A DNA stretch of 64,000 nt from Chloroflexota bacterium (GTDB taxonomy: Bacteria > Chloroflexota > UBA11872 > VXOZ01). The notes beneath the pieces were generated by a model, which worked only from the letters and a program-made list of their open reading frames with translations, was not told the DNA's origin and ran no database searches. Made by a program: the position numbers and the translations under genes. Positions 26,605 to 44,718 of the stretch are shown here, piece after piece; position 1 is the stretch's first letter; the number at the start of each line of letters is the position of its first letter. The stretch covers positions 2,176,001 through 2,240,000 of the forward strand of contig OZ219802.1 of assembly GCA_964291655.2 (NCBI GenBank), in the 5' to 3' direction.

Positions 26605-27668
26605 TGTCAACCTCTCGAGAAGACAACACGCGGGCACCCGTTATCGCTTCTGCCCCCGGTCGCTGCGGCATCATCGGCAATCCGACCGACATGTACGGCG
26701 GCAGCGTACTTTCCTGCACTATTCCCCAGCGCGGCTACGTCTCCATTCGTCCGGCGGATAGCCTCATCCTCGAATCCGACCAGGGCCTGCTCTCCGTCCG
26801 TACGCGTGACGACTTGCAGCAGCGCGGCGATCATTTTGACGTGCTGCGCGCGGTGATTTCCCAACAGCAGTGCCTCGGCATGAAAGCCCACTTCACCTGC
26901 TGGAGCGACGTCCCCATCGGCTCCGGTCTTTCGAGCTCGTCGTCATTAGTCGTCGCTGCGCTCTACGCACTCGTTGCCTACCAAGGCCGCGCGATGAGCC
27001 GGTACTTCTTCGCCGAGACCGCCCGCGGCATCGAGCTGAACGACATGGGCGTGATTTGCGGCTACCAGGACTTCTACATGCCCACCTTTGGCGGGCTCAA
27101 TTACATGGAGTTTCGCGACAAAGAGTTCTACCGGGAAGTGCACAGCGAGCCGTATGCCGCCGTTGAATCCCTGACACCGCTAGTGCGGGAACTACCCTTT
27201 GTGCTGGCGCACACCGGTATTGAGCATAGCGCCGACGTCGTGCACCGACCTATCCGCGAGCGGTGGTTGGAAGGCGAGCGTCACGTGGTGCAGGCGTACG
27301 TAGAGATCGGCCGTCTCGCGAGAGAGGGCAAGAAAGCTCTGCTGGAAACGGACTGGGAGCTTCTGGGCAGGCTGATGAACGAGAACCATGCGATACAGCG
27401 CGATCTGGGTGGGTCCGGCGCGGAAAACGAGCAGCTCATTCAGGCCGCTTTGGACAACGGCGCGCCGGGGGCGAAGCTGGCCGGAGCCGGCGACGGCGGC
27501 ACGATCATTGCGCTACATCCCGACCCGGAGTATCTCGGCAGTCAATTGAAAAGTGTGGGGGCCACTCGCATTCTCTTCCCCCGTCCCGTCGCAGGCGCCC
27601 GCCTCGACTCCTCCTCAGGCGCAGATGAATCTGCCGTCGCAAGTACGTATGCGGGGAACGTCGAGTAA
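26601..27668 (+). CDS. GHMP-family sugar kinase (glucuronokinase/HddA-like)
   Basis: GNPTD, PIGSGLSSSS, CGYQD, GAKLAGAGDGG; ATGA overlap with galU. Confidence 0.85.
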   Translation: MMSTSREDNTRAPVIASAPGRCGIIGNPTDMYGGSVLSCTIPQRGYVSIRPADSLILESDQGLLSVRTRDDLQQRGDHFDVLRAVISQQQCLGMKAHFTCWSDVPIGSGLSSSSSLVVAALYALVAYQGRAMSRYFFAETARGIELNDMGVICGYQDFYMPTFGGLNYMEFRDKEFYREVHSEPYAAVESLTPLVRELPFVLAHTGIEHSADVVHRPIRERWLEGERHVVQAYVEIGRLAREGKKALLETDWELLGRLMNENHAIQRDLGGSGAENEQLIQAALDNGAPGAKLAGAGDGGTIIALHPDPEYLGSQLKSVGATRILFPRPVAGARLDSSSGADESAVASTYAGNVE

Positions 27669-28455
27669 GCGCGCGGATCAACGACCCCATGTAAATCCCC
27701 AAATTTGGGACGGGACTAGCACGGACGTCCAGTCCAAGGCACCATCCAGGCCGGCAAGCAGATCATCCTCTCTTCCTGGAAGACTCCCGTAGCGTGGGGC
27801 AAAAGAGTTTTCGGCGTTGAGGGGCTGTATGTAGCCTGACCATGCTCGCTACGGCGGAGAAGTGCGCGGCTATCCGATCCACTCTCACCGGTCTTGGTGA
27901 GCCTGCACATGGTTCCTGCACGTAGTTGAAACCGGAAGAGCAAGGATTCACCCAGCCCGGCCATTTCCCTAACGAAAGGGAGTCCGTCTCCCCTGCCGGC
28001 GCCGGCTGCGTAAAAGTGCCTTTGAGGGGAGAGGTGAACTTGCACCAGCGGTCGCCGCTCGCCAAGGGTTCTCTAATTTTCCCGCAGGTTTCTCGGTTGC
28101 GCTGTAGGACGTGGACGGACAGCGTGGACGACCTCGAATACCCTAATGTGGGGCGGCGTGGAGGCGTAGCCTCCTTGCGCTGCGATGCAATCGTGGATAT
28201 AGACCGCCTTGCCGCGACCGGCCCTGCCGCATTGAGCCAGCATCAGTCTGGCAATCTCCCGCCAGTCTTGGTAGGTTAATGTTGTGCGGAGGCCTGAATT
28301 CAGTTGCGGTTAGCAGGAGCGATCATCCCAAGAGATTCGGAGCTATTGTTGCTGGAGCAGCGCCGTCCCAAGTCGTCGCAGCAGCAGTGGGGGAGGAAGC
28401 GCTCAACCCCGCGAATCAGGGCTCAGGCGAGTACCACACACCACATTAATTACGA

Positions 28456-29475
28456 TTGAAGAGAGTCTTAAAAACGACAGCCACCCTTGACCGACCTTCA
28501 AAGCGACCGCGTATTGAGCGGCAAGACACTGTGTCAGAAGCCGCGCGCAAGGTCCTCTGCTTTCACTTCAGCCGCATGCTGAAACATGAGGCAGGGACGA
28601 TTGACGGCAGTGACGTCGCAGAATTGCACGACATGCGCGTTGCCGTGCGCCGGATGCGCGCGGCTGTGAGGCTGTTTCGTCCCTACCTCCCGAAGAAGCA
28701 GGCTGCTTACCTACGCAAGGACCTGCGTCGCCTCGGTCGCGCCCTGGGGCCTGCACGCGACTATGACGTCATGCTTGCCAACTTGGAGGTCTACAGAGCG
28801 GACTTGCCGGCGCAAGAGAAGGAGGCGATCGGTCTTGTAGTGCGACGCTGGCAGAAGCAGCGCGCGCGGGCACGGAAGGCCATGCTCGCATACCTGGCAA
28901 GTAAACGCTATGGGTTGCTGAAGCAAAGGGTACGCGCTTTCCTGGATGGCGATCCCCCAGCGGCTGCGCGAAACGTAGACGGCAACGGAGTGTTGCCTGC
29001 GGCAACTCCTCTACAAGAACCCCTTGTTGAAAGTGAAATCCCGAGCCTACTCGCCAGCCGCTATGAAAAGCTGCTCGCCTACGGCCCTTCGCTGCACGGG
29101 GCTTCGGTAGCGACGCTGCATGCGCTGCGCATCGACTGTAAACGCCTGCGGTATGCCCTGGAGTTTTTTCGCGAGTCCCTTCCCCCTCAGGCGGCTGCCG
29201 CCATCGAAGACATTACGCGGGCCCAAGACCACCTTGGCGTCATTCAGGATGCCTACGTCGCCGGGAGAGTCCTGCGCAAGCTCCTGGAGAAGTGGCAGCA
29301 CGCGCATGACGACACGCGTTACCCAGCCGCGGCGAGGGAAGCGCTTTGTGGGTACTTGGCACACTGCGACGATCAGGTGCGAACGAACGCCCATGCGTTC
29401 CCGGTAATCTGGGAGAATCTTACCGGGCTCGAATTCCGTCAGCGCCTGCACGTGATCGCGACCACGTTTCCCTGA
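28456..29475 (+). CDS. CHAD-domain polyphosphate-binding protein
   Basis: LHDMRVAVRRMR, LGPARDYDV, LHALRIDCKRLRY, QDHLGVIQD. Confidence 0.93.
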   Translation: MKRVLKTTATLDRPSKRPRIERQDTVSEAARKVLCFHFSRMLKHEAGTIDGSDVAELHDMRVAVRRMRAAVRLFRPYLPKKQAAYLRKDLRRLGRALGPARDYDVMLANLEVYRADLPAQEKEAIGLVVRRWQKQRARARKAMLAYLASKRYGLLKQRVRAFLDGDPPAAARNVDGNGVLPAATPLQEPLVESEIPSLLASRYEKLLAYGPSLHGASVATLHALRIDCKRLRYALEFFRESLPPQAAAAIEDITRAQDHLGVIQDAYVAGRVLRKLLEKWQHAHDDTRYPAAAREALCGYLAHCDDQVRTNAHAFPVIWENLTGLEFRQRLHVIATTFP

Positions 29476-29654
29476 GGCTACTCTTGAGTGAGTCTGACGG
29501 ACACGAGGAACTGGGCTGTGATGGTGAAGACTTCCCCTCACCCCGGTCCTCTTCCCAGGGAGAGGAAGTCTTTTCGCCTGCGGCATTTGGTTGTGAAAGG
29601 TTCCCCAGAGGCCGGGTGGCGGCGGGGCACGTGGAGTTTTAACGAGGAGCATAC

Positions 29655-31307
29655 ATGACCGGAGAACGCGTGGCCGTCATTGATATTGGCTCTAATTCAG
29701 CGCGCTTGGCGCTGTTGGAAGTGTATGAAGACCGCGCGTTCAAGCTCGTAGATGAGTTGCGCGAAACGCTGCGGTTGGGCGAACAGCTCGATGCAGACGG
29801 CTACCTTACTCCAGAAGCAGTGCAACGCACGTTGGAAATCTCGCGCGTCTTAGCCCGCTTCTGCACGGCCCATCGTGTCACGCACGTCATTGGAGTTGCT
29901 ACCAGCGCCCTGCGGCGCGCCCGCAACGGGCCGGAAATCGTTGACCGCATCCAAGCTGAGACCGGACTGCGCGTCAACATTATTTCCGGCGACCATGAGG
30001 CGCATTTTGATTACGTGGCGGCGGTTAACAGTTCCGCGGCGGCGGACAGTGTGGTTGTCGACGTAGGCGGTGGCAGTGCACAAATTGTACGCGCCCGCGC
30101 CCGCGCCGCCACGCACAAGACAAGCCTACCGCTCGGCTCCATCACGCTTACTACCGCTTTTCTGAATCGCAACAAGCCGACAAACAAGCAACTCCGCGCC
30201 TTGGAGAAACACGTCGGGATCAATCTCAGGGCAATCTCTTGGCTCCACGGGCAAGGTGACGACACGGCGCACTCGTCCAATGGCGACGCTGCAGACGTGC
30301 GTACCCCGCGCCGGGCCGCCGCGCTCTCGCAGAACGGCCGGCCGGTCTTAATCGGCATCGGCGGCACGGTGCGCAACTTGGCCAAGATCTATCGGCGGCA
30401 GACAGGGTATCCGCTCGACCTCCTGCACGGCATGATTCTCCCTATCGGCGCCGTAGAAGAGATCTACGGCATGCTCCGCAAGCTCAACCTCGAGGATCGG
30501 CGCAAAGTCCCGGGCCTCTCCACCAAGCGGGCGGACATCATTGTCGCGGGCGCGGCGGTAGTGTGCGGTCTTGCCAAGGAAATCGGTGCTGCTGCGCTCG
30601 TCATTAGCGGCAGAGGCTTACGGGAAGGCTTGTTTCTGAATCACGTCCTGGGCGGTGACTTAGTGGAGCCGCGCGTGCCCGATCCGGCGCTCTTTGCCAC
30701 AATTAATCTCATGCGGTACTACAACGTTGACGAAACGCACGCGAACCACGTGGCGGACCTTGCGCTCTCCCTCTTCGATCAGCTTGCGCCAGTCCATCGA
30801 TTGGATGGAAGCACGCGTAGGTTGCTGAAAATCGCGGCGCTCCTCCATGACGTGGGGGTCGCCGTGAACTACTATAACCACGACGAGCACGGCTTCTACT
30901 TGCTCACGCGCACGGGCATCGATGGGTTGACCCACCGCGAATTGCTGATCGTTGCTTGCCTTGTGGCCGTGCACAACGGTAACGTGGGCCCGCTAAAGCG
31001 CTGGCCGGAGTACCGCTCGTTGCTAAAAAAGCACGACGTGGCTGCTGTGACAAAGCTCGGCGCAATCCTGCAACTGAGCGAGGCACTGGATCGGAGCGAG
31101 TCGCGACTGGTTGAGGCTGCCGCGTGCAAGATTTCGAATGACCGCCGCAAGATTGTGCTGCGGCTTACGGCAGACCCGGACGCTGTGTGTGAAGTCCGTG
31201 AGACACAGGCAATGCTAAATGACATTGCAGCCGCATTTGGGGTACACTTTAAGCTCGAAGTCTCGCCATCACGTTTGAGACCTGAGGAGACCGAGGCTCT
31301 GTTGTAA
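29655..31307 (+). CDS. ppx: Exopolyphosphatase Ppx/GppA with HD domain
   Basis: IDIGSNS, ATSALR, DVGGGS, IGGTVR, GLREG, LLHDVG. Confidence 0.93.
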   Translation: MTGERVAVIDIGSNSARLALLEVYEDRAFKLVDELRETLRLGEQLDADGYLTPEAVQRTLEISRVLARFCTAHRVTHVIGVATSALRRARNGPEIVDRIQAETGLRVNIISGDHEAHFDYVAAVNSSAAADSVVVDVGGGSAQIVRARARAATHKTSLPLGSITLTTAFLNRNKPTNKQLRALEKHVGINLRAISWLHGQGDDTAHSSNGDAADVRTPRRAAALSQNGRPVLIGIGGTVRNLAKIYRRQTGYPLDLLHGMILPIGAVEEIYGMLRKLNLEDRRKVPGLSTKRADIIVAGAAVVCGLAKEIGAAALVISGRGLREGLFLNHVLGGDLVEPRVPDPALFATINLMRYYNVDETHANHVADLALSLFDQLAPVHRLDGSTRRLLKIAALLHDVGVAVNYYNHDEHGFYLLTRTGIDGLTHRELLIVACLVAVHNGNVGPLKRWPEYRSLLKKHDVAAVTKLGAILQLSEALDRSESRLVEAAACKISNDRRKIVLRLTADPDAVCEVRETQAMLNDIAAAFGVHFKLEVSPSRLRPEETEALL

Positions 31308-31361
31308 GAAATCGTCCCAGTATCCTGTTTCTATGCCCCAACCCATACTTGATTTGCATAT

Positions 31362-32099
31362 GTGTCATCTGCAGCAATCCAGCAAAGGGAGAGACCAAAA
31401 GTGGCACTGAAGAAAATTCGTGGCTTAGGCCTCAACAAGCAGTACCCCGGCCGCTTAATTGTCGTGGAGGGATGCGACGGCTCCGGCAAGAGCACCCAAC
31501 TCCACCTCTTGCGCGTCTGGCTGCAGTCACAGGGGTACCCGGTCGTCTTTACCGAGTGGAATTCGTCGGCAATCGTTAAGCAGGCGACGCGACGGGCGAA
31601 GCGCAAGGAATTGCTCACGCCCACCACGTTTAGCCTCATCCACGCCTGTGACTTTGCCGATCGCTACGAGAAAGTCATCCTCCCGCCCCTCCACGCCGGG
31701 TGCATCGTGCTGGCCGACCGGTACGTCTACACCGCGTATGCGCGGGACGTGGCGCGCGGCTGCGATCTACAATGGGTGCGCAACACCTACCGCTTTGCCG
31801 TACAGCCGACCATCGCCTTCTATTTCCATGCGCCGTTGGAGGTCTCGATTTCGCGCATCCTCTTCGGCCGTCCGTCGTTGAAATACTATGAAGCCGGCAT
31901 GGACACCGGCCTCTCCCTGGATCCGGTGGAGAGCTTCAAGCTATTCCAGGGCAGAATCAAAGAACAATACGACAAGATGGCGCGCAGTGAGCAATTCGAG
32001 GTCATAGATGCCACGCGTTCCATTCATGAGACCTGGGGAGAGGTGCAAAAAGTGGTGCAAGATAGACTGGCGGACTACGAGCCACCCAAGAAGAACTAA
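31362..32099 (+). CDS. Thymidylate-kinase-fold protein with intact P-loop (candidate polyphosphate kinase catalytic subunit)
   Basis: EGCDGSGKST, TEWNSS, LADRY, YYEAGMD. Confidence 0.8.
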   Translation: MSSAAIQQRERPKVALKKIRGLGLNKQYPGRLIVVEGCDGSGKSTQLHLLRVWLQSQGYPVVFTEWNSSAIVKQATRRAKRKELLTPTTFSLIHACDFADRYEKVILPPLHAGCIVLADRYVYTAYARDVARGCDLQWVRNTYRFAVQPTIAFYFHAPLEVSISRILFGRPSLKYYEAGMDTGLSLDPVESFKLFQGRIKEQYDKMARSEQFEVIDATRSIHETWGEVQKVVQDRLADYEPPKKN

Positions 32100-32137
32100 G
32101 TGACTCGTGTGGAGCAGCCGCTGCTTAGCACATCTCG

Positions 32138-33028
32138 GTGGGTGGCAGGTTTGCGCGTTGCTGCCGCTTGAACCGGAACGGCCCGCAACAACGCCGCAAG
32201 GCCGGACATACGACAAGCAATAATCAAGGGGATGAGGAAATTTCAACCACAATTCCAGCCCGCGCACGCTTTTATGGTTGCGGCTTGCCCTTGCTTGAGG
32301 ATCTCGAACTCGGCGGCCCTCTCATCGTCATCGAGGGTTCAGACTGTTCCGGGCGCTCTACGCAAGCGGAGATGCTCAAAGAGTGGCTCGAGTCTCAGGG
32401 ACACGCCGTAATGGAGATGGGCATTCGACGTTCAGACCTGCTGTCTAAGGCCATTTCCGCGGCAAAGCAGGGCAACCTGCTGGGCAAGACCACGCTGAGC
32501 TTACTCTATGCCACCGACCTTGCCGATCAGTTGGAGAACCGCATCGTGCCCGCAATGCAAGCCGGCTTCGTAGTGCTCGCCGACCGCTATATCTACACGC
32601 TTATGGCGCGGGACCTGGCGCGCGGCGCCGACCTAAAGTGGTTGAAGAGTCTCTTCGGCATCGCGCTCGAACCGGACTTGATCATCTATCTCGATGCGGA
32701 GCCGGAAGTACTCTTCTACCGCACGCTGGCGAAGTATGGCGAGCTCAATTACTGGGAGTCCGGGATGGACTTGCAGATGGGCAGCAGCATGTTCGAGAGC
32801 TTCCTGAAGTACCAAGCGTCGCTGCGCAAGAACTTTCACCGGCTCGCCAAAGAATACGGCTTCAGAATGGTTGATGCCACGCCCGGCCCGAAGAAGATTC
32901 ACCGGGAGGTCAGTGGAATTGTCTCCGAGTACTTGGAGAATATGGTGCAGCAGCCGCCGCGTCTCGCTCAAACTGAGGTGCAAAGCGTAAGCACCGCTAA
33001 CCGGCGAGTTCGCGTAGAAGAAGGCTAA
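32138..33028 (+). CDS. Second thymidylate-kinase-fold protein with degenerate P-loop (candidate partner subunit); start uncertain
   Basis: EGSDCSGRST (Lys replaced by Arg), LADRY, YWESGMD. Confidence 0.8.
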   Translation: MGGRFARCCRLNRNGPQQRRKAGHTTSNNQGDEEISTTIPARARFYGCGLPLLEDLELGGPLIVIEGSDCSGRSTQAEMLKEWLESQGHAVMEMGIRRSDLLSKAISAAKQGNLLGKTTLSLLYATDLADQLENRIVPAMQAGFVVLADRYIYTLMARDLARGADLKWLKSLFGIALEPDLIIYLDAEPEVLFYRTLAKYGELNYWESGMDLQMGSSMFESFLKYQASLRKNFHRLAKEYGFRMVDATPGPKKIHREVSGIVSEYLENMVQQPPRLAQTEVQSVSTANRRVRVEEG

Positions 33029-33401
33029 CCCGCTCCTCGATTTGGTCGCGAATCTTCCGCACCACGGCCGGCGGCTGCCCGCTGGGATTGGGAAGCCCCC
33101 AGTCTTCTACGGGCGTATGCACTACCGGGCACGACTCCTCGATGTCGCAGCCCATTGTGATGATCCGATCTGCCCAGTCCGCTAGTTCCTGCGTCAAAAG
33201 CTTGGGCGCGTGCGCAGCGAGGCTGATGCCGCGCTCTGCCATTACCTCCACGGCAAGAGGATTCACCTGCTCGCCCGGTTCCGTGCCCGCAGAACGCGCC
33301 TCCACGCTGCCGTCAGCAAGGTGACGGAGCAACGCCTCCGCCATTTGACTGCGTCCGGCATTGTGCACACAGACAAACAGCACGCGTGTCACTTCAGGCA
33401 T
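32997..33401 (-). CDS. arsC: Arsenate reductase, LMW-PTP family
   Basis: FVCVHNAGRSQMAE, TMGC...CP, DW..P. Confidence 0.88.
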   Translation of the reverse strand: MPEVTRVLFVCVHNAGRSQMAEALLRHLADGSVEARSAGTEPGEQVNPLAVEVMAERGISLAAHAPKLLTQELADWADRIITMGCDIEESCPVVHTPVEDWGLPNPSGQPPAVVRKIRDQIEERVSLLLRELAG

Positions 33402-33537
33402 CTCCTATCGCGCGGACTAAGCGGGATTCCAGACTGCGACCGTGTGTCAGGTGCGGCGCGTGAGATTTACCGTCTCAAGACGCCCCGTCTCCTGGCGCTG
33501 CTCGATCTCCCTTTCCGCTTCTCCACGGCAGTAGACC

Positions 33538-34203
33538 TTACTGTTTCGAGAGGTTGAGGTCCAGCATCTTGCCGGTTACCAGGTAGATTACCCGCTCGGC
33601 AATGTTCGTTGCGCGGTCTGCCGTGCGCTCCAAGTCATGCGTCACCCAGAGCAGGTACGTGGCGCGCTGAATGCTCTGCGGGTCTTTGATCATGAACAGG
33701 AGCAGTTCGTTGTAGATCTGCTCGTGGAGCGCATCCACCTCATCATCGGCGTCGCACACCCTTCTGGCCAGGTCCACGTCCCGGGTCACGAGCGAGTCGA
33801 TGCTTTGGCGGAGCATGTTGATGGACATCTCCGCCATGCGCGGGATGTCGATGAGGGGTTTGAGCGGCGGCTCATCGCCCATCATGAGGCTAATTTTGCC
33901 GATGCCTTCCGCATAGTCGCCCATGCGCTCCAGCTCCACCGCAATGTGGAGCAGAGCAATGACCCAGCGCAAGTCGCGGGCTGCGGGTTGTTGGGTGGCA
34001 AGCAGATCGACGCAGCGTTCTTCGATGGCAAAGCGCTTCTCGTCGATCACGTCATCGAACGCCACGACGGCTTGCGACGCCCCCAGGTCGCGCTCCCGCA
34101 AGGCTTCGATTGCGTGCGTGATGGCCTTCTCCACCATGCTTGCAAGGGCGAGGATGTCATCCTGAATCTCGTCCAGTTGACTCTCGACATTCGTGCGCAC
34201 CAT
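33538..34203 (-). CDS. phoU: Phosphate signalling protein PhoU
   Basis: QQPAARDLR, ELERMGDYA, DDEVD, LERTADRATNIAE. Confidence 0.95.
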   Translation of the reverse strand: MVRTNVESQLDEIQDDILALASMVEKAITHAIEALRERDLGASQAVVAFDDVIDEKRFAIEERCVDLLATQQPAARDLRWVIALLHIAVELERMGDYAEGIGKISLMMGDEPPLKPLIDIPRMAEMSINMLRQSIDSLVTRDVDLARRVCDADDEVDALHEQIYNELLLFMIKDPQSIQRATYLLWVTHDLERTADRATNIAERVIYLVTGKMLDLNLSKQ

Positions 34204-34483
34204 GGCGGTCCCCCTTTCCACTGTTGCTCGCAAGTCCCTTGAAAACTGGGCTTCGTCTCTCACGCGAGCGGGTCTTTCTCTGCTCTGTTCGGCACATGTG
34301 CAGCCGGTGTTCGCTAAGACAAGAGTACCAAGAACATTGGGTACTCTTGTTGCTACACTTCATCCTCGCCTGTTGTCAGTTGATCGGTGAATCCCTTATC
34401 CTCAGAGCTTCTCAGGTTCATCATACAATCTTGACACGCCTTTTGCACATCCTGCAATGACGCAGGCCGCACGCTGTCGGCGT

Positions 34484-34753
34484 TTACACGTGGCTCGAGA
34501 TGTACTCGATCGGCTCGACGTGGTCACAGGACTCCCGGCCGGCTACCGCATTGCAGAGCGGACAGCGCCAGTAGCAGGTTTCCCGCAGAATCGTCGCGGG
34601 ATGCTCGATGAAGTGGTCCCTGACGCGGTCCTGCGTGAGATTCACTTCTGTTTCGCAATGCGGACACAGCCACGTTCGCTGTTCGTCCCGCAGAATTGTG
34701 CTCAGGCTTTCATCATCAAACCGGGCCGGCTCCGTAAGTGCTCCCTTTGCCAT
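34484..34753 (-). CDS. Small Cys/His-rich putative zinc-binding protein (89 aa)
   Basis: GGAGG RBS; CPHC...H...H and CPLC...CDH; co-oriented between phoR and phoU. Confidence 0.55.
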   Translation of the reverse strand: MAKGALTEPARFDDESLSTILRDEQRTWLCPHCETEVNLTQDRVRDHFIEHPATILRETCYWRCPLCNAVAGRESCDHVEPIEYISSHV

Positions 34754-34845
34754 GGGGCATGCCTCCATTCTCTCTACTGCTCCGTGCGCCACACGCGCAC
34801 GTTTCTTTTCGTTCATTGCTTCACTGTCGAGCATAACGCCGGGGC

Positions 34846-34883
34846 ATGTACAGAGCGTTAGCGCAGAGTGTACAGCGTGTGAA
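34846..34883 (-). promoter_or_regulatory. Putative Pho-box-like direct repeats
   Basis: TTCACACGCTGTACAC and CTAACGCTCTGTACAT at a 22-bp period, upstream of a TATGCT -10-like hexamer. Confidence 0.35.
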
Positions 34884-34930
34884 CGTGGGGGAGTGCGCAG
34901 ATCCTGGCACGGCGCCGCGAAGAATCCTAT

Positions 34931-34958
34931 GTAGGGGCACGACATGTCGTGCCCCTAC
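34931..34958. repeat. GTAG-type REP palindrome
   Basis: Perfect palindrome GTAGGGGCACGACATGTCGTGCCCCTAC. Confidence 0.88.
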
Positions 34959-34979
34959 GCAACCGCATTGACCACGCGT

Positions 34980-36758
34980 TCACATGGCGCTCTGCTCGGT
35001 CACGGCGGGGAGGACCACCGTAAAGGTCGTGCCCTGCCCTTCCACGCTCTCCGCGTGGATTTCGCCGCCGTGGGCTTGCACGATGTGCTTGACGATAGCC
35101 AGCCCCAGACCGAATCCCTTGCTTTGACGCGAACGGTCTACTTTGTAGAAGCGTTCGAAAATGTGGGGCAGGTGCTTCCTGGGAATGCCAACGCCCGTAT
35201 CGGCCACCCGCAGGCAGACTGTGCCATTCTCCTGTTGTGCAGAGAGAGAGATGCGGCCGTCCTCGGGGGTAAACGCAACTGCATTATTCAGCAGATTGTC
35301 CAACACTTGACGCAGCTTCTCTTCGTCGCCGCGGACGCGGGGCAGTTGTTGCGGGAGTGTGACGTCGAGTACAATCTTGCGTTTTTCCGATCGCTCCCGA
35401 TGTTCTTCATCCAGCTCGGCAATCAATGGTTGCAAGTCGAGCGGCACGAGTTGCAGACTCGCCTGTTCGCTTTCGAGACGCGAGAGCTCCATCAGTTCAT
35501 TTACCATGGCGGTCATGCGATCTATCTCACTATTGATGCGGCGCAGGAAGTCTTTTGCGCGCTTCTTTTCCTTGAGAGCGCCGCTCGCCAGGGATTCCGC
35601 CAGAATCTTCACCGCCGCCAGCGGCCCGCGCAACTCATGCGAAACATTGCTCACAAACTCTTTGCGGGTGGTCTCTACTTGGCGAATGCGCGTTAGGTCG
35701 TGCATCGTCAGCAATACACTGGAATTGCCGTGCTCCTCCAAGGGCGTGGTAATGACGCTCAGGTAGCGGCGCCATTGCGGGATTTCCACTTCCCCATGCT
35801 GGACCTCGCGCCGCTCCGTGCAGCGGGCGACGAGCTGCTGCAGGTTGTGGTCGCGGATGATTTCGGTGAAGCGGCGGCCCGGCATGTCGCCAGCCGCAAG
35901 GTTGAGAATCTCTTCCGCGGCGTGGTTTACCAGCACAATTGTGCCGTTGCCGTCGATGACGACGACACCGTCGGCCATCGTGTTGAGCACTGCCGTCAGC
36001 TTGCCTCGTTCCACGGAAAAGTCGCGCACCAGGTCGCGCAGAGACATCGCCATGCGGTTGAATGCCTGGGCAAGCTCCTGGGTCTCGTCGCTCCCCTGGG
36101 CCTGCACGCGATAGTCGAAATCGCCGGCAGTGATTTGGCGGGCACCCTCGGCAAGCGCGCCGATAGAACGAGACGTGCGCGACGCGACGCTGAAGCCCAA
36201 GAGCACCGCAAGGGCTGCACCGGTCAGGCCTATCAGCGCGATGATGCTCATGCTGCGGTTGATATCCGCTTGTGCCTGCGCCATCGGCAAGGCAACCCGC
36301 GCCACGCCGAGGGTCTCATCCCCGGCGATGACGGGGACCGCTACGTGGATGAGTTCCTCACCCGCGGTGCCGTTGCGCCGCCTGCTGACGCCCACTCCGG
36401 CACTTAATGCACGCTCAACCTCCGGTAGATGGGCCTGATTTGCCATCTGTGCCGGGTCTCCCCAACTATCTGCGAGCGTGGCGCCGTCAAGGGCGATAAG
36501 GGTAACGCGAGCGGAAATGCTGTCACCCATGCGCTCGCTTGCCGCCTGGAGCGCGCCGGTGTCCGCTTCGGCGAGAAAGAAGTGAGCGCTGGCTTCGGCA
36601 ACCAAGCGCGCCTCGTGCTGCAAACGCGTCTCGAGATTGGTTAAGTGGGCGCTACGGACGAACGTGACGAGATAGAAGCTGGCTACACCCAGCGTAAGAA
36701 CGATCAACGCAGTGTAGACAAGCGTGATGCGCCATTGCAGAGATCGTGGAAACTTCAT
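34980..36758 (-). CDS. phoR: Sensor histidine kinase (HAMP-PAS-HisKA-HATPase), PhoR type
   Basis: EFVSNVSHELR, NLLNNA, DTGVG, FERFYKVDRSR, GLGLAI; next to phoU. Confidence 0.88.
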   Translation of the reverse strand: MKFPRSLQWRITLVYTALIVLTLGVASFYLVTFVRSAHLTNLETRLQHEARLVAEASAHFFLAEADTGALQAASERMGDSISARVTLIALDGATLADSWGDPAQMANQAHLPEVERALSAGVGVSRRRNGTAGEELIHVAVPVIAGDETLGVARVALPMAQAQADINRSMSIIALIGLTGAALAVLLGFSVASRTSRSIGALAEGARQITAGDFDYRVQAQGSDETQELAQAFNRMAMSLRDLVRDFSVERGKLTAVLNTMADGVVVIDGNGTIVLVNHAAEEILNLAAGDMPGRRFTEIIRDHNLQQLVARCTERREVQHGEVEIPQWRRYLSVITTPLEEHGNSSVLLTMHDLTRIRQVETTRKEFVSNVSHELRGPLAAVKILAESLASGALKEKKRAKDFLRRINSEIDRMTAMVNELMELSRLESEQASLQLVPLDLQPLIAELDEEHRERSEKRKIVLDVTLPQQLPRVRGDEEKLRQVLDNLLNNAVAFTPEDGRISLSAQQENGTVCLRVADTGVGIPRKHLPHIFERFYKVDRSRQSKGFGLGLAIVKHIVQAHGGEIHAESVEGQGTTFTVVLPAVTEQSAM

Positions 36759-37477
36759 CCCTCAAACCGGTAGCCAACGCCACGGACGGTGACGATACGG
36801 GTGGGTTCACTGGGGTCTGTTTCAATTTTTTCCCGCAGTCGCCGCACGTGTACGTCTACAGTGCGATTGTCGCCGACCCAATCGAAGCCCCATATGCGCT
36901 CGAGTATCTGGTCCCGGGTAAAGACCCGGTTGTGGCTGGACATGAGGAGCGCCAGCAGACTGAATTCCTTGGGCTTGAGCGCGAGAATTTGCTCGCCAAG
37001 ACTTGCAGAGTGACTGGAGAGGTTTAGCTGGAGGTCTCCGGCATTAAGCACGGTTGCCGAATCGGCGGCAGGAAGGCCGTCGCCAGTCGACCGCGTGCGA
37101 CGGCGCACCGCGCGAATGCGGGCCAGCAACTCCCGCGTGCTAAAGGGCTTAACGACGTAATCATCCGCTCCCAATTCGAGGCCAACGACGCGATCTACCT
37201 CTTCACCCTTGGCCGTAAGAATGATTATCGGCGCCGTGGTCTCCCGCCGCATGATGCGGCATACCTCTAAGCCGTCAAGCACCGGCAGCATGATGTCGAG
37301 GATGATGAGATCCGGTTCGACTTCCCGCGCCAGGTTCAGCCCTTCCTCGCCATCCATCGCGCTATGCACGACGTAACCGTCCTGCTCCAGGCGGTAACGC
37401 AACGCCTCCTGCAGATTGTCGTCGTCTTCTATGATGAGCACTTTTTCGCGTGGCAATTGTCTCTCCTCGGCCGTCAC
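36755..37477 (-). CDS. phoB: OmpR/PhoB-family response regulator
   Basis: LDIMLP, GADDYVVKPF, RTVDVHVRRLR, TVRGVGY; overlaps phoR start. Confidence 0.85.
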   Translation of the reverse strand: MTAEERQLPREKVLIIEDDDNLQEALRYRLEQDGYVVHSAMDGEEGLNLAREVEPDLIILDIMLPVLDGLEVCRIMRRETTAPIIILTAKGEEVDRVVGLELGADDYVVKPFSTRELLARIRAVRRRTRSTGDGLPAADSATVLNAGDLQLNLSSHSASLGEQILALKPKEFSLLALLMSSHNRVFTRDQILERIWGFDWVGDNRTVDVHVRRLREKIETDPSEPTRIVTVRGVGYRFEG

Positions 37478-38950: not shown

Positions 38951-39784
38951 ATGTGGATAGTTGTGAGTGAACCGCTACCTACAACGCCTGACTATACGAT
39001 GGGCTTTAGTGAAGAGATGCTCGAGTCTCTTCGGCGCTACAACGTGGAAGCCAGCGCCAAGCACCTACGCCCCTATCTCCGGCCCGGTCTGCGTGTGCTC
39101 GACTTCGGTTGCGGGCCGGGTACCATATCGGTGGGTCTGGCCAAGGCCGTCGACCCCGGTGAACTGCATGGCGTCGATATGGAAGAGTCGCAGGTCGAAC
39201 TGGCGCGCTCTGTCGTCGCGGCCTATGGACAGGATAATGCCGAATTCCATGTTGGCGACGTGGCCAATATGCACTTCGAGGACGGCTACTTTGACGTGGC
39301 CCACTGCCATAACGTGCTCATGCACATCCCGGATACGCAAGCAGTGCTGGGCGAGGTGAACCGTGTCTTGAAGTCCGGCGGTATCATTTCCTGCCGTGAG
39401 ATGATATGCGAGTCAAGTTTCACGCATCCCGATTTTGGCGTAATCAGAAACGCGTGGGAAATGTTTGCGGATCTGATCGAGGCTGACGACGGCCATCCAC
39501 AGATTGGGAAGGCTCTGAAGGACCACGTCCTGAAGGCCGGGTTTGCGAACCCCTACATAACCGCTACCACCGATGTCTACGGCACGCCCAGGGATGTCGC
39601 GTTCATCCACGCCTTTGCCAACCAGTGGTTCTTGTCGCCAGAAATCACGGAAGCGGCCATCAAGTACGGGGCGGCCACGCAAGAACTTTGCGATGAGATA
39701 CGCGTCGCCTATGACAAGTGGAAGGATGCGCCCGGGGCGATTTGCGGCGTCGCATTTGGCGAGGTCGTAGCTAGTAAGCCGTAA
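38951..39784 (+). CDS. Class I SAM-dependent methyltransferase
   Basis: VLDFGCGPG, FDVAHCHNVL, LKSGG. Confidence 0.92.
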   Translation: MWIVVSEPLPTTPDYTMGFSEEMLESLRRYNVEASAKHLRPYLRPGLRVLDFGCGPGTISVGLAKAVDPGELHGVDMEESQVELARSVVAAYGQDNAEFHVGDVANMHFEDGYFDVAHCHNVLMHIPDTQAVLGEVNRVLKSGGIISCREMICESSFTHPDFGVIRNAWEMFADLIEADDGHPQIGKALKDHVLKAGFANPYITATTDVYGTPRDVAFIHAFANQWFLSPEITEAAIKYGAATQELCDEIRVAYDKWKDAPGAICGVAFGEVVASKP

Positions 39785-39818
39785 TCCTACACCAGCTACC
39801 GGCCCATCCCTCCCCAAG

Positions 39819-40025
39819 GAGACCTTTGCACAACCCACGCCGGCGCGGAAAAGTCCCCTCTCCCGGCGGGAGAGGGTTAGAGCCTGCCCCGTACTCGATA
39901 CGGGGGTGAGGGGGAGATTCCCGCATTCTGGGAGCTTTTTCCCGCTATTGCACTCCTGTATATCGGTCTTGCTGGTAAAGAGGATGGGGTAAGCAGAAAT
40001 CCCCTCACCCCGGCCCTCTCCCCGA
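39819..40025. mobile_element. GAGACC-ended REP-doublet MITE, left part, interrupted by IS1182
   Basis: GAGACCTTTGCACAAC end; homologous to the reverse complement of 18705-18886; second IR not found. Confidence 0.6.
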
Positions 40026-41583
40026 TAGGCTGTCTCAATATTTTGGTGCGGGGCACGGTGAATGGGGTGAGAAGGACAGACAGATGGCGGGTGGTATGAA
40101 CAAGACGGTGCCAGTGAGAGACTCGTCCCCGGGGCGACGCTGGACTACACCCAGACCGCCACAGGGCGTGGAGGCTCTTGAGATTGAACGCGGTGGCCAG
40201 CAGGTGCCATTCGGACGTCACGTGGCTGCGGCCTCTGAGCAGGAAGCGCCTGGCACTGTGCCACTCCTTGAGCAGGCCAAAGACCGGCTCGACGATGGTA
40301 CTCCGGCGGCGGTACACCTGCTTGGCAGGCGCGGTGGCCATCAACTGCCTGTGCCGTTGCAGTATTGGCTCGTAGGCGCTGATCTTTATGGAGCGGCCCC
40401 TCTGGGAGGAGGTGCAGACGCCGAAGGCCGGACAGGTTCTGCAGTCCCGGCCGTTGGCTTGGTACCGCTTGACCCGGTAGCCGTTGCTGTGGGTCAAGCG
40501 GTGCGTGTAGGTGAGCACCTTTTGCTGGGGACACAGGTAGGTGTCGGTCTCTGGACGGTAGGTGAAGTGGTCTTTATGGTAGGGGTTGCGGCGTCTGCGC
40601 TCGTGGGTCGTGGGCATCAATACCGTGTGGCCGCCGGCGTGGCACGTGGCGAGGTTGGCCCCCGAATGGTAGCCGGCGTCCGCAACGGTCACCACGTCCC
40701 GCGCGGCGTCGATGTTCTCCTGCGCCGCCTCGATCAGCGGCGCCAGGTGGGGATGGTCGTCGGCACTGGCGCTCACGTCCACGGCTGTGATCAACCTCCC
40801 CCCTGCGCCCTCGTCCGGGGACGCAAGAGGGGAGACCAGCGCCTGGGCGTTGTAGCCGGTGATGAAGCCACCCATGCCAGTCTTGAGCAGGGCCGCGTCC
40901 GCATCAGTCAGGTTCGTGTAGCGCGGCCCGTCCTCAGCCGCGACGCGGGCGAGCGCGTCGTCCACCCGCCGCCGCAGGGCCTGGGCATCGGCAAGTTCCT
41001 GCGGCAAAGTCGCTGGCGGCGCGTCGCCCCCCGTGGCGTTCTGCGCCTCCAGGTCCGCGATCGCTTGCTCGGTGCGGGACAACAGCCGCTGCAGCCCCTG
41101 CGCGTCGTGGGTATGCCGCGTCCCGGCGTTGGCCGCGATCCTGGTGCCGTCCACCGCCTGGATTGCCAACTCCACCAGGCCGGCTCGCACCGCCGTGCGC
41201 ACCGTGCGCTTGAGCAGCGTCCGCATCCGGTCGCGGTGCGCCTTGTAGAAGCGCCACAGCGTGTTGTGGTCCGGCTGCTGCATCCCCACCAGCCACAGGT
41301 ACGGTACCTGATCCCGGCAGGCTGCCTCCAGCTTGCGGCTCGAGCGCACGCCGGTCATGAAGCCGTAGACCCATACGCCCAGCAGCGCGCGCGGATGGTA
41401 GGCCCCGGCGCCACGCGGATCGCCTTGCAGGTCAATCTCCATCGCCTCCCAGGCCGCAGCATCGAGGCTGTCCACGAACGCTGCCGCAAACCTGACAGGA
41501 TGGTCGTCCGGGATCAGTTCGTCCAGCGTCGGCGGCAACAGCCAGGCCTGTTCACGACTAAACGGTCTCAACGGCATCGTCAC
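39877..41583 (-). CDS. IS1182 transposase (ORF reads through the IR into flanking DNA)
   Basis: LLPPTLDELIP..HP, YHPR..L, SSRKLE, PDHNTL, DGT, GYNAQ, DAGY, C..CP, RR..VEPVFG. Confidence 0.93.
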   Translation of the reverse strand: MTMPLRPFSREQAWLLPPTLDELIPDDHPVRFAAAFVDSLDAAAWEAMEIDLQGDPRGAGAYHPRALLGVWVYGFMTGVRSSRKLEAACRDQVPYLWLVGMQQPDHNTLWRFYKAHRDRMRTLLKRTVRTAVRAGLVELAIQAVDGTRIAANAGTRHTHDAQGLQRLLSRTEQAIADLEAQNATGGDAPPATLPQELADAQALRRRVDDALARVAAEDGPRYTNLTDADAALLKTGMGGFITGYNAQALVSPLASPDEGAGGRLITAVDVSASADDHPHLAPLIEAAQENIDAARDVVTVADAGYHSGANLATCHAGGHTVLMPTTHERRRRNPYHKDHFTYRPETDTYLCPQQKVLTYTHRLTHSNGYRVKRYQANGRDCRTCPAFGVCTSSQRGRSIKISAYEPILQRHRQLMATAPAKQVYRRRSTIVEPVFGLLKEWHSARRFLLRGRSHVTSEWHLLATAFNLKSLHALWRSGCSPASPRGRVSHWHRLVHTTRHLSVLLTPFTVPRTKILRQPIGERAGVRGFLLTPSSLPARPIYRSAIAGKSSQNAGISPSPPYRVRGRL

Positions 41584-41669
41584 TACCTCTCTACAAACTA
41601 TCCCACCACCTCACCTTGCTTCTCTTCACACCAGTATATATCCAGTAGATCTATTTTTGAGACACCCTC
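40026..41669 (-). mobile_element. IS1182-family insertion sequence
   Basis: IRs TAGGCTGTCTCAA / GAGGGTGTCTCAA; 4-bp TSD CCGA equals the loop of CCCTCTCC-CCGA-GGAGAGGG. Confidence 0.9.
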
Positions 41670-41936
41670 CCGAGGAGAGGGTGCAGAGCGCGGAGCCGAG
41701 TGAACATGGAGCCGCTCCGGTTCCCTCTCCGGCGGGAGAGGGTTAGAGCCTGCCCCGTACACGATACAACGTATCGGCACGATACGGGGGTATACCTTGG
41801 GAGAAGCCGATGTGGTCCGCCTGACAGGGCGCGTCAGAACCTTTTCGATCTCTCCCGTGCGTCGCTTGCCCGGGTAGGAAAAGGTGGCCTAGCGCTTTCT
41901 CCCGACTGGGCGTTGGCGCGCGGCGTTTGCGAACGC

Positions 41937-42419
41937 CTACGGGGTGGGAGAGTCTTTCATAGCGTCATAGTTGGCGAGTATTTTGGTGGTGGTGGACTCC
42001 AAAACGCGCAGTTCTTCTGTGCTAACGCCATCTACAAGCTTGGCGTAGTACTCGCGCATGCGCTCATGGAGGCGCTGCGCCAGTTCGCTCCCCTCTTCAG
42101 TTAGCGATAGCATTACGGTGCGCCGATCGCTGCGCAGCCGTCGCCTACGCAGCATTCCCATATCGACCAGCGTGTTCACGACGCGGCTTATGCGGGAAGC
42201 ATCCACGGGGAGCACGCTCGCCAGTTCCGTTGCAGTGCACTCGTTTCGCTGAATACACGCATTCAGGAGGGAGAATTCCACGTGGTTGAGGCCGAAGGGC
42301 GCCGCCTCTTCCATCATTCCTTTGAAGATCGCGGTCTCCAGCCTGATCACACAGGCCTCTAAGTCCACTGCCGACTCGCGCACCGAGTCGTTTTGGAACT
42401 CTTGGTTCTCAGTGGTCAT
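41937..42419 (-). CDS. MarR-family transcriptional regulator
   Basis: ELA...SRISRVV..LV..G...DRR...LTEEG. Confidence 0.92.
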   Translation of the reverse strand: MTTENQEFQNDSVRESAVDLEACVIRLETAIFKGMMEEAAPFGLNHVEFSLLNACIQRNECTATELASVLPVDASRISRVVNTLVDMGMLRRRRLRSDRRTVMLSLTEEGSELAQRLHERMREYYAKLVDGVSTEELRVLESTTTKILANYDAMKDSPTP

Positions 42420-42769
42420 GCATTACTTTTCTTAGCAAATATTGCGTCTGAAAAAATCGAAGCGTTTTTTTGATTGTACTCCTCAGAGAGCCTTGCCGCA
42501 ACTTATCATCAAGCGTCTCCCTTCGTGTGTCCGATCGTGGCCGTAGATACAGGCGCTGCCGGATACTGTTATGCGGATTTTCTGGGTCTGGGAGCGAGCT
42601 TCCGACTTCCACGCTTTGCGCGCGCATACACTAACTTCGCAGGCGGGATTGGCAATACGCACACCTACACCAGCGACGAGGTTCGGTGCGCCAAACGAGC
42701 GTCGCGGGTAGTGCGATCTAGGCTAAACACGCGACGTTAGCGACTGGTAGCGGAGGCATGAACGGCGCG

Positions 42770-43603
42770 TTAATCGAGAGCGGCGAGTACGGTTACTCGG
42801 AGCACACCCAAAGCTGGGTCCGGCTCGACCGTAGCCTTCACCCGGAAGACGTCCGCAAGGTTTTCTGCGGTGAGCACGTCGCTCACAGGGCCGCGCGCGT
42901 GCGCCTTGCCGCGGTGTAGCAACATCAGGCGGTCGCAAAAGCGCGCGGCAAGGTTGAGGTCATGCACCACGGCAACGGCCGTGAGGCCCTGGCGCACCAG
43001 GCTGCGGATCAGCGTAAAAACCTGAAGTTGGTGCTGCACGTCGAGGCCCGCCGTCGGTTCGTCCAGTAAGAGCAGCCGCGGTTGTTGGGTGAGCGCCCGC
43101 GCCAGGAGCACGCGCTGGCGCTCGCCGGCGGATACCTCGGTGATGAGGCGCGTTACGAACTCTTCGGTCTCGGTGTCCTTCATGCGTTGCCTGGCAAGGT
43201 CACGATCATGCGCGCCTTCGGTTTGAAAACGGCCCAGATGTGGGTTTCTCCCCATCAGGACTACCTCCAAGCACGAGAATGCAAAGTTAAGCGTGGTGCT
43301 CTGCGGCAGCAGCGCGATGTGCCGCGCAATCTCTTGGGGCGACTGGCGCCGCAAGTCGACGCCATCCAAGCACACCCGGCCGGTAGCGGGCGAGAGGAGC
43401 TGGCTAATGCACCTCAGCAGGGTGGACTTGCCGGCCCCGTTGGGCCCAATGAGGCCAAGCAAGCTCCCACTGCGCACCTCCAGGGAAACCGCTTCCAGCA
43501 ACTGCGTCATGCCCACGGCAAAGGAAACGTCATGCGCGGCGAGTTCGGCGCCTTCGATGCGTCGGGAATCTGTGATTCCCGCGGAATCAGAGGACGTACT
43601 CAC
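42770..43603 (-). CDS. Iron-chelate/cobalamin ABC transporter ATPase
   Basis: GPNGAGKST, SAGERQR, LLDEPT, VHDLNLA. Confidence 0.93.
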   Translation of the reverse strand: MSTSSDSAGITDSRRIEGAELAAHDVSFAVGMTQLLEAVSLEVRSGSLLGLIGPNGAGKSTLLRCISQLLSPATGRVCLDGVDLRRQSPQEIARHIALLPQSTTLNFAFSCLEVVLMGRNPHLGRFQTEGAHDRDLARQRMKDTETEEFVTRLITEVSAGERQRVLLARALTQQPRLLLLDEPTAGLDVQHQLQVFTLIRSLVRQGLTAVAVVHDLNLAARFCDRLMLLHRGKAHARGPVSDVLTAENLADVFRVKATVEPDPALGVLRVTVLAALD

Positions 43604-44718
43604 AGGATATTGCCCTGTCGTTTACTGCGGTACAGCAGGTAGAGGAAGAAGGGCGCGCCAAAGAAGGCGGTGATGAGTCCCACCCGCAACTCCTGGGGAC
43701 GCAAGAGCAGACGCGACCCAAAATCCGCCCACGTGAGCAGCACGGCTCCCGTCAGGAGACTTGTCGGCAGTACAATGCGGTGATCGGGGCCTACAATTAG
43801 GCGCACCATGTGCGGTACAACCAGGCCGACAAAGCCGATAATCCCGCTCACCGCCACGGCAACCGCCGTGATGAGGGCTGCCAGCGTGAGCATGATCAAC
43901 CGGACGCGCCGCACGTCTACCCCCATGCTCCGCGCGGTGTCCTCTCCCAATGACATCAAGTTAAGGTCTCGGGCAAAGAAGAGTAAGAGGAGGCTGCCTA
44001 CCACAATAAATGGAAGAATGAGTTGCACGTGCGTCCAGCTACGGGCGCCGAGACTGCCGGTGAGCCAAAACACGATCTCGCGCATGGAATTGACGTTGGC
44101 CGTAAGCGTAAGCACAGCTGAAATGATGGAACCGATGAAGGCTTGCACCGCGACGCCGGCGAGGATCATCGTCGTCAGTGGGTCCACACCACGTGTTGCG
44201 GCCAACACGTAGACTAGCATCACGGCAGCCAAGGCTCCCAAGAAGGCAAGTGCCGGCGTGGCCAGGTAGTGGACGCTGCGTATGCCAAAATGAATGGCGA
44301 TCACCGCCCCCAGCGCTCCGCCGGCCGACACCCCGATGATGCCGGGATCGGCGAGGGGATTGCGGAAGATGCCCTGCATGGTCGCTCCCGCCAACGCCAG
44401 TGCCGCCCCCACCAGGGCCGCCGTCAGCACGCGCGGCAGGCGCACGTGACTGATGACGCTCCATTGCACGTCGGTGGCAGTCGCGCCGAGCGGAATGCCC
44501 ATCTGCTGCAAGACGATCGATGCGGTTACGCCCAACGGCACGTCTACGGCGCCAATTGCCATGGTCACGACAAATGATATAAAGAGCAGCAGCGCGAGCA
44601 TTCCCAGCGCTAAGGCGAGTCTCAGCGCTAGTGGGGCTTCAACATCCAGTGTCCGCCGCAGCAAATTCGAGTTAGTCCGCGTCTTTGACGGGGTCGGTGC
44701 CTTTGACGAATTCTGCAC
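43600..44718 (-). CDS. FecCD/BtuC-family permease
   Basis: RLPR, RNPLADP, GEDTARSMG, GFVGLVVPH. Confidence 0.93.
   Translation of the reverse strand: MQNSSKAPTPSKTRTNSNLLRRTLDVEAPLALRLALALGMLALLLFISFVVTMAIGAVDVPLGVTASIVLQQMGIPLGATATDVQWSVISHVRLPRVLTAALVGAALALAGATMQGIFRNPLADPGIIGVSAGGALGAVIAIHFGIRSVHYLATPALAFLGALAAVMLVYVLAATRGVDPLTTMILAGVAVQAFIGSIISAVLTLTANVNSMREIVFWLTGSLGARSWTHVQLILPFIVVGSLLLLFFARDLNLMSLGEDTARSMGVDVRRVRLIMLTLAALITAVAVAVSGIIGFVGLVVPHMVRLIVGPDHRIVLPTSLLTGAVLLTWADFGSRLLLRPQELRVGLITAFFGAPFFLYLLYRSKRQGNIL

Follow-up and report, generated by a model that had tools for sequence, protein, structure and literature searches.

What do two adjacent genes of the thymidylate kinase (Tmk) fold contribute to a bacterial gene cluster whose other members are linked to polyphosphate (polyP)? 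This question is raised by a 64,000-nucleotide stretch of the genome of a Chloroflexota bacterium (UBA11872; VXOZ01; assembly GCA_964291655.2, contig OZ219802.1, positions 2,176,001-2,240,000), which we call the window and whose own numbering is used for the positions given below. The listing of its open reading frames (ORFs) and Pfam searches identified four co-oriented genes on the plus strand at 28456-33028. The first encodes a CHAD-domain protein of 339 amino acids, of a polyP-granule-associated family (28456..29475; PF05235, 199 bits), and the second a Ppx/GppA-family phosphatase of 550 amino acids, a probable exopolyphosphatase (29655..31307; PF02541, 171.2 bits; PF21447, Ppx-GppA_III, 89.7 bits), which scores 274.1 bits against TIGR03706, below the cut-off of 307. 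They are followed by the two Tmk-fold paralogs: paralog 1, of 245 amino acids, predicted to be a cPPK3-type catalytic subunit (31362..32099; Thymidylate_kin, 76.7 bits), and paralog 2, its putative rPPK3-type partner, of 262 amino acids from a proposed ATT start (32240..33028; Thymidylate_kin, 72.1 bits). We consider it highly likely that the four genes form a polyP operon and that the pair is a bacterial PPK3, with paralog 1 as the catalytic subunit and paralog 2 as its activating partner.

It has been reported that the PPK3 of Sulfolobus acidocaldarius (SaPPK3) is composed of the catalytic Saci_2019 (cPPK3) and of Saci_2020 (rPPK3), which is itself inactive but activates its partner, in an alpha2beta2 arrangement (Hofmann et al., J Biol Chem 2026, PMC12995831, with a bioRxiv preprint). 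According to this work, the enzyme is reversible, yet ATP formation from ADP and polyP is favored; the places of ADP and polyP are exchanged compared with PPK2; the order of its operon is sixA-ppx-cPPK3-rPPK3-CHAD; and the PPK3 clade is a predominantly bacterial branch in whose gene neighborhoods PPX, CHAD, SixA, and PstS/C are found (PMC12995831). The original prediction, made from the letters of the window, had named a 'PPK3' of two subunits, encoded next to ppx in S. acidocaldarius; this is correct and corresponds to the same article. It is important to note that bacterial PPK3 with ppx and CHAD neighborhoods has already been published in general terms, and that the pair of the window is not a new system. 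Among the literature matches listed since 2024 for 'PPK3', only this article and its preprint treat the PPK3 family.

The predicted catalytic subunit and its relatives

Our search for related loci confirmed at least 567 of 600 candidate stretches, and the best 80 loci constitute the basis of all counts out of 80 given here, with the class of each paralog, catalytic (c) or partner (r), assigned by single-sequence phmmer scores together with motifs. By record title, 66 of these loci are from Bacteria (38 Acidobacteriota, 5 Chloroflexota, and at least 12 further phyla) and nine from Archaea (seven Nitrososphaerota and two Methanobacteriota), with five unassigned. In every one of the 80, a c gene is followed by an r gene on the same strand. 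With at least 567 genome hits, the PPK3-like family is common in bacteria.

The best match of paralog 1 in the PDB is the cPPK3 homolog of Sulfurisphaera tokodaii (2plr/5h70), at 200.9 bits (E 2.5e-58) against 73.2 bits for the best canonical Tmk. Its motifs include the Walker-A sequence GCDGSGKST, TEWNSS, DFADRYE, LADRY, the lid GRPSLKYYEAGMD, and YYEAGMD; it carries the P-loop lysine K43 and the DRX arginine R120, and it possesses the c-specific basic residues K73, R78, K82, R101, R170, and K174. Three of these, K73, R78, and K82, lie in the helix that follows TEWNSS, and two, R170 and K174, belong to the lid; a basic residue occupies these five positions in 93-100% of the c types and in 0-12% of the r types, and R101 makes a sixth, partial difference (80/80 c types versus 35/80 r types). 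It has been reported that the residues of the polyP cleft are conserved in cPPK3 only (PMC12995831), and we infer from the alignment that the basic columns found in c types alone are those published residues. These features lead us to assign paralog 1 to cPPK3 by homology. It evolves under strong constraint, with a ratio of nonsynonymous to synonymous substitution rates (dN/dS) of 0.025 over 34 same-genus pairs, and it shares 39% identity over 216 amino acids with paralog 2 and 29% over 143 amino acids with the genome's own Tmk.

An alternative to be weighed at this point is that one or both paralogs are genuine nucleoside monophosphate kinases, acting on dTMP or another substrate, and that their link to polyP genes is incidental. 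Both have in common with canonical dTMP kinases the fold, the Pfam family, the P-loop, the DRY motif, and the lid, and against the NCBI dTMP kinase model TIGR00041 they reach 82.3 bits (paralog 1) and 81.9 bits (paralog 2), just short of the cut-off of 83.25. Because the scores sit so close to this cut-off, databases commonly give relatives of the pair the name 'dTMP kinase', which is the mis-annotation as tmk that the original prediction had expected. In addition, an earlier study described the S. tokodaii homolog as a thymidylate kinase of an unusual kind; that study followed ADP formation only (bioRxiv preprint, Hofmann et al.), and neither Saci_2019 nor Saci_2020 produced dTDP (PMC12995831). 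The TREPG motif of canonical dTMP kinases is missing from both paralogs, as had been noticed before, and its place is taken by TEWNSS in paralog 1 and MGIRRSD in paralog 2, while a canonical tmk with 'REP' at this site lies elsewhere in the genome (159.7 bits; G000:C2:1993835-1994413), 212 kb from the pair.

The gene neighborhoods also distinguish the pair from canonical tmk. Within 6 kb of the pair, ppx is present in 59 of the 80 loci, CHAD in 48, either one in 64, and both in 43; neither was found in 16, of which 11 end early at a contig edge. phoU occurs within the same distance in 11/80 and an arsC-like gene in 8/80. When two loci from genomes flagged as unpublished (L023 and L056) are left out, the counts for the remaining 78 are 57 for ppx, 47 for CHAD, 62 for either, 42 for both, 16 for neither, 11 for phoU, and 7 for the arsC-like gene. 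By the same method, no such genes were found in any of 20 neighborhoods of canonical tmk, taken from genomes of that class which carry the pair; these genomes are related and not independent. The association of the pair with ppx and CHAD is not due to chance, and the survey of neighborhoods that the original prediction had proposed came out in its favor as regards ppx and CHAD (64/80 versus 0/20). Given these neighborhoods, the replaced TREPG, and the canonical tmk elsewhere, we regard a genuine nucleoside monophosphate kinase as very improbable.

Phylogenetic analyses place the pair with PPK3. In a first tree, which combined 81 sequences of the catalytic type and 81 of the partner type with 15 canonical Tmks, the c types form a clade with a support of 100 in the Shimodaira-Hasegawa-like approximate likelihood ratio test (SH-aLRT), and the canonical Tmks are separate, with 99. 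A second tree of 125 rows included divergent archaeal pairs; the grouping is anchored by PDB 2plr/5h70 and named Nitrososphaerota loci rather than by the Saci proteins themselves. Here the c types, those of the divergent archaeal pairs included, form one clade of 55 rows with a support of 99.9. The c type groups with the solved S. tokodaii cPPK3 homolog and apart from the canonical Tmks, whose own clade has a support of 99-100. When all r types were constrained to one clade, the fit was better than in the free search (log-likelihood, lnL, +9.47), and the constraint was not rejected by the approximately unbiased test (p value, p-AU, 0.706). The partner of the window is probably orthologous to the characterized rPPK3, with different changes in its active site. 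The nearest neighbors of the two window proteins match in both subtrees: same-genus Chloroflexota, then a metagenome-assembled genome (MAG) of Armatimonadota, and then Methanocella. Moreover, the pairwise identities of c and r types are correlated over the 80 loci (Spearman 0.63, a value reached by 0 of 200 label permutations); therefore, the pair has been inherited and transferred as a unit.

The putative partner subunit

The best PDB match of paralog 2 is the same S. tokodaii protein (151.6 bits, E 2.3e-43), at 37-38% identity, with 48.2 bits for the best canonical Tmk. Its AlphaFold2 model, made from a 24-row alignment, has a mean predicted local distance difference test score (pLDDT) of 82.5 and a predicted TM-score (pTM) of 0.75; the top eight PDB chains retrieved with this model all belong to the S. 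tokodaii protein (TM-score 0.87-0.91), and canonical Tmks follow at far weaker E-values. In its motifs, paralog 2 has the Walker-A sequence GSDCSGRST, in which arginine replaces the lysine, DLADQLE, an intact LADRY, the lid motif YWESGMD, and an N-terminal RFYGCGLP. Both Walker-A sequences and the shared Y(Y/W)E(A/S)GMD are exactly those described in the original prediction.

The replacement in the Walker-A motif is characteristic of the whole class. This position holds arginine in all 80 r types and lysine in 79 of the 80 c types, the remaining one being truncated. Among the best 120 database homologs of paralog 2, 114 carry the arginine, five are shortened gene calls that lack the P-loop, and one is a fusion whose partner half was unmatched; lysine at this position of a partner-type domain was found in none of the 120. 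At the earlier arginine site, DxxDRxE, the r types have glutamine in 45 cases and arginine in 35, whereas all 80 c types have arginine. The partner type keeps R150, R158, R162, and R195, has gained a conserved R98, and conserves an N-terminal FYGxGLP. With a dN/dS of 0.091 (33 same-genus pairs, range 0.070-0.128), paralog 2 is constrained by purifying selection and is not decaying. From this pattern of homology and motifs we classify it as an rPPK3-type partner subunit.

The comparison with Archaea reveals that the partner has, as judged by its motifs, two subtypes. In a sample of 201 archaeal genomes, from the phylum of one Nitrososphaerales locus, we found 14 with adjacent double hits. Eight of them have partners like that of the window, with an arginine P-loop and DRY. 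In the other six, the pair is divergent: the catalytic subunit is similar to the S. tokodaii protein, and the partners show DGY (6/6), lysine (4) or arginine (2) in the P-loop, and a degraded lid motif. The divergent DGY subtype fits rPPK3 as published, whose inactivity has been ascribed to a replaced DRX arginine (PMC12995831). The subtype of the window, with the arginine P-loop and DRY, is the common one and occurs in Nitrososphaerota and Methanocella as well as in bacteria; of the two, it is the rarer, divergent subtype alone to which the published reason for inactivity applies. The term 'pseudo-kinase' is plausible for the common subtype, although it keeps the DRY arginine that the characterized inactive subunit lacks.

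These conserved features admit another explanation, in which paralog 1 is a self-sufficient polyP kinase and paralog 2 is a ligand-binding or catalytic protein with a role of its own, such as sensing the nucleotide or energy charge or, with its arginine P-loop, acting on another phosphorylated substrate. The retention of DRY, R158, R162, and the lid residue R195, the gain of R98, the fixation of arginine in the P-loop without the signs of decay, and the dN/dS given above would agree with it, as would the report that Saci_2019 by itself has some activity (PMC12995831). On the other side stand the strict adjacency of c and r genes in all 80 loci, their correlated divergence, the fusions described below, and the fact that the characterized homolog works by binding the catalytic subunit (PMC12995831); a sensor role would, moreover, be compatible with a partner role as well. 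We consider an independent role of paralog 2 unlikely. As a variant of the partner role, the arginine P-loop subunit may be a ligand-sensing module, for nucleotide or energy charge or for the phosphate chain end, that gates the catalytic subunit; we put this forward tentatively and hold it to be possible, if rather doubtful. If it were true, most PPK3 would be regulated unlike the Sulfolobus enzyme, whose partner has lost the DRY arginine.

Fusions of the two genes point indirectly to a physical association of their products. Among 240 retrieved homologs, those with at least 380 amino acids are in 10 of 10 cases composed of a c half followed by an r half, which is the order of the genes. For one of them (P0011), a model from an 11-row alignment has a mean pLDDT of 85.7, a pTM of 0.84, and a disordered linker of 26 residues, and it suggests a defined packing of the two halves. 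The accessible sections of the published article mention only one possible c-r fusion (PMC12995831); the single-chain fusions observed here come from several lineages (P0008, P0010, P0011, P0013, P0016, P0017, P0022, P0034, P0126, and P0142).

The full search with paralog 2 retrieved 184 representative clusters at E<=1e-30, 1,388 at E<=1e-10, and 7,870 at E<=1e-3. Long hits of this search also join catalytic-type domains to further modules, namely a Ppx/GppA domain III/HD module in four proteins, an SPX phosphate-sensor domain in one, MFS transporters in two, DUF2252/APH in five (the SPX and MFS ones included), and, in other cases, the pyrophosphatase (two proteins) or ADP-ribosyltransferase domains of polyvalent proteins. 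The proteins in question are P0257, P0268, P0291, P0321, P0370, P0366, P0380, P0352, P0361, P0375, and P0387.

Start codon of the partner gene

Special attention has been given to the start of paralog 2, whose open frame also permits a GTG start at 32138, giving 296 amino acids (32138-33028). Four of eight distinct same-genus loci (among L006-L014) lack any ATG, GTG, or TTG in the interval from the upstream stop codon to the P-loop, and several database calls of the partner gene in the genus are over-extended or begin at an internal methionine and thus lack the P-loop (P0009, P0012, P0014, and P0015). These two facts would be expected if the pair were a decaying duplicate in which paralog 2 is a pseudogene or is untranslated. 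Against this, the frame is intact in all nine loci (the eight relatives and the window), and in all nine an ATT codon is preceded by a AAGGGGATGA box (AAGGGGA); orthologs outside the genus have a methionine start at the place equivalent to this ATT; and both the range of dN/dS (0.070-0.128) and the confident model speak for a maintained protein. We therefore regard decay as extremely improbable. In the model of the longer ORF, the pLDDT is below 50 at residues 1-19 and 24-39. Paralog 2 probably starts at the non-standard ATT at 32240 and not at the GTG at 32138. Were the partner the ligand-sensing module considered above, the conserved weak ATT start would hold its level below that of the catalytic subunit in this genus. 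In practical terms, the genes of the pair are routinely annotated as dTMP kinase, and the partner gene is often mis-called in the genus.

Polyphosphate kinases across genomes

The genome of the window (3.47 Mb in two contigs, 97.55% complete) has no match to PPK1 (PF02503) or to PPK2 (PF03976) in its whole length, and neither paralog matches PF03976 either. A cryptic PPK1 was considered and rejected: the sole weak hit to PP_kinase_C, at 18.2 bits, belongs to a protein of the PLD family (PLDc_2, 173 bits). The ppx and CHAD genes of the operon are the only above-cut-off copies in the genome. Because PPK1 and PPK2 are lacking, the pair is the only candidate in this genome for making polyP and for drawing ATP from it.

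We compared the window genome with 40 relatives, 41 genomes in all, which as kin are not independent of one another. The pair is present in 28 of the 41, including all 17 of the window's genus. Among these 28, PPK1 occurs in none, PPK2 in four, and neither in 24, while among the 13 that lack the pair PPK1 occurs in five, PPK2 in eight, and neither in four; the distribution of the pair and that of PPK1 and PPK2 among these relatives are complementary. The window genome is a clean natural 'PPK3-only' case, with apparently a single polyP kinase and all its dedicated polyP genes in one operon, and as it comes from a poorly studied phylum, it would be a good source for a first biochemical test of a bacterial PPK3. 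On three points, our survey also refines what has been published: the abundance of the family in bacteria, its usual coexistence with PPK1 or PPK2, of which the counts are given below, and the existence of two partner subtypes.

Proposed mechanism and comparison with known systems

Homology, phylogeny, and motifs support the proposal of the original prediction that the pair is a polyP kinase, as do its gene neighbors and the absence of PPK1 and PPK2 from the whole genome. In the mechanism that we propose, paralog 1 would bind ATP or ADP at its normal lysine P-loop, its basic cleft would hold the end of the polyP chain where a dTMP kinase binds dTMP, and phosphate would be moved reversibly between ATP and polyP. 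Paralog 2, which has neither the basic cleft nor the Walker-A lysine, would most likely be non-catalytic and, by analogy with the S. acidocaldarius enzyme, would more likely bind the catalytic subunit and activate it through oligomerization. The CHAD protein would bind or decorate polyP, and Ppx would hydrolyze it. As no other polyP kinase is detectable, the enzyme would have to make polyP at a high ATP/ADP ratio and give ATP back at a low one.

The pair of the window resembles SaPPK3 in having adjacent Tmk-fold paralogs, the catalytic gene first, in an operon with ppx and CHAD; a c subunit with a lysine P-loop, TEWNSS, DRY, and a conserved basic cleft, in which the dTMP-binding motif has been lost; and a genome with a canonical tmk elsewhere and no PPK1 or PPK2. 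It differs in that its host is a bacterium, that its operon has no sixA, and that CHAD is located upstream instead of downstream; in its partner, moreover, the DRY arginine is retained and the Walker-A arginine is fixed. The S. tokodaii protein STK_15430/ST1543 (PDB 2plr, 4nzy, 4rzx, and 5h70), the best PDB sequence match of both paralogs, was crystallized as the catalytic subunit only, and a structure of the heteromer is absent. PPK2 is also a P-loop kinase of polyP and nucleotides, and its two-domain class II likewise pairs an active with an inactive module, although it is a separate family. Canonical dTMP kinases, for all their likeness, have TREPG, belong to a separate clade, and lack ppx and CHAD neighbors.

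It is important to consider the observations that weigh against our reading. The published cause of inactivity is inapplicable to the partner of the window: DR[Y/F] is kept in 80/80 r types as well as in 80/80 c types, and since DRY is retained, the change from lysine to arginine and the missing basic cleft are the two grounds left for predicting that paralog 2 is inactive. In the second tree, an independent duplication in the divergent archaeal lineage was disfavored only at the borderline and not rejected (lnL -33.2, p-AU 0.055). The high pTM of the modeled fusion may reflect its likeness to solved Tmk homodimers. As to a single operon, our consensus scan of 27500-34500 stayed at chance for promoters (2 versus 2.1 expected) and terminators (7 versus 6.0), and the gap of 179 nt between CHAD and ppx contains a terminator-like hairpin with a T-rich tail (29547-29566, plus strand), which hints at a separate transcription of CHAD, although such matches occur at chance frequency in the region. 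No biochemical study of a bacterial PPK3 is among the literature matches listed since 2024.

Finally, other polyP kinases frequently coexist with the pair. In 50 of the 80 carrier genomes (L012-L061), a set that is rich in Acidobacteriota and includes many incomplete MAGs, PPK1 was found in 26, PPK2 in 37, one or both in 41, and neither in nine; without the two flagged genomes (n=48), the counts are 26, 35, and nine for PPK1, PPK2, and neither. Because PPK1 or PPK2 coexists with it in 41 of 50 carriers, making polyP need not be the general role of the pair. This coexistence agrees with the report that SaPPK3 favors ATP formation, and it differs from the statement, in the accessible sections of the same article, that the majority of PPK3 carriers encode neither PPK1 nor PPK2 (PMC12995831). 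The absence of ppk1 and ppk2, which the original prediction had noticed in the window, thus extends to the whole genome but is not a trait of the family.

Upstream region and neighboring genes

Upstream of CHAD, a gap of 790 bp contains a conserved island of about 46 bp (28246..28291, plus strand), with 83-91% identity in three same-genus loci, and the rest of the gap is unconserved. The island occurs once in the genome, is readable as TGGCAA, 17 nt, and TAGGTT, and may be, from its conservation, the promoter or operator of the polyP operon. Rfam, searched with 27000-35200 at E values of up to 1, returned no match.

A set of minus-strand genes converges on the polyP genes, identified by Pfam, NCBIfam, and tblastn. 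The first encodes a low-molecular-weight phosphatase (32997..33401, minus strand; PF01451, LMWPc, 87.2 bits), the 3' end of which overlaps paralog 2 by 32 nt. It is followed by phoU (33538..34263, minus strand; TIGR02135, 196.5 bits, above the cut-off of 130.25), a cysteine-rich ORF of 153 amino acids (34484..34945, minus strand), a phoR-like sensor histidine kinase (34980..36758, minus strand; HisKA, HATPase_c, HAMP, and PAS domains), and a phoB-like response regulator of the OmpR family (36755..37477, minus strand; Response_reg, 108.4 bits; Trans_reg_C, 105 bits). The layout and coordinates that had been described for CHAD, ppx, and the pair beside arsC-phoU-phoR-phoB hold; the 'arsC', however, is only arsC-like, as it stays below every NCBIfam arsC cut-off (76-80 bits versus 157-215). 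Its product has a CX5R motif and two more cysteine residues, a pattern that we take to resemble that of the thioredoxin-type ArsC. Genes of this kind are found near the pair in several phyla (loci L012-L014, L023, L058, L072, L076, and L077). The cysteine-rich ORF, which is unannotated and has two CxxC motifs, shows 49-83% protein identity in three same-genus loci, where tblastn found it conserved, and it matches no Pfam family above cut-off.

The context of a Pho system, to which the original prediction had attached the operon, is confirmed in that the genes adjoin in the window; at the level of the family it is not general, with phoU in the few loci counted above, and no signal resembling a Pho box was found. 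Direct repeats with a period of 10-12 bp and k-mers common to the regions upstream of CHAD and phoB gave nothing above chance, with nine shared 9-mers seen against about nine expected. Control of the polyP operon by the neighboring Pho genes, or by PhoB, would be a guess.

In the six ORFs scanned with Pfam at 38951-46025, no pst genes were found. These ORFs comprise a methyltransferase, a transposase, an iron-type ABC transporter, and two without a Pfam match. The transposase, of the insertion sequence (IS) DDE type (DDE_Tnp_1_6, DUF772), lies at 39877-41583 on the minus strand, about 2.4 kb past phoB, and the transporter, of the iron-siderophore type (FecCD, ABC_tran), at 42770-44718.

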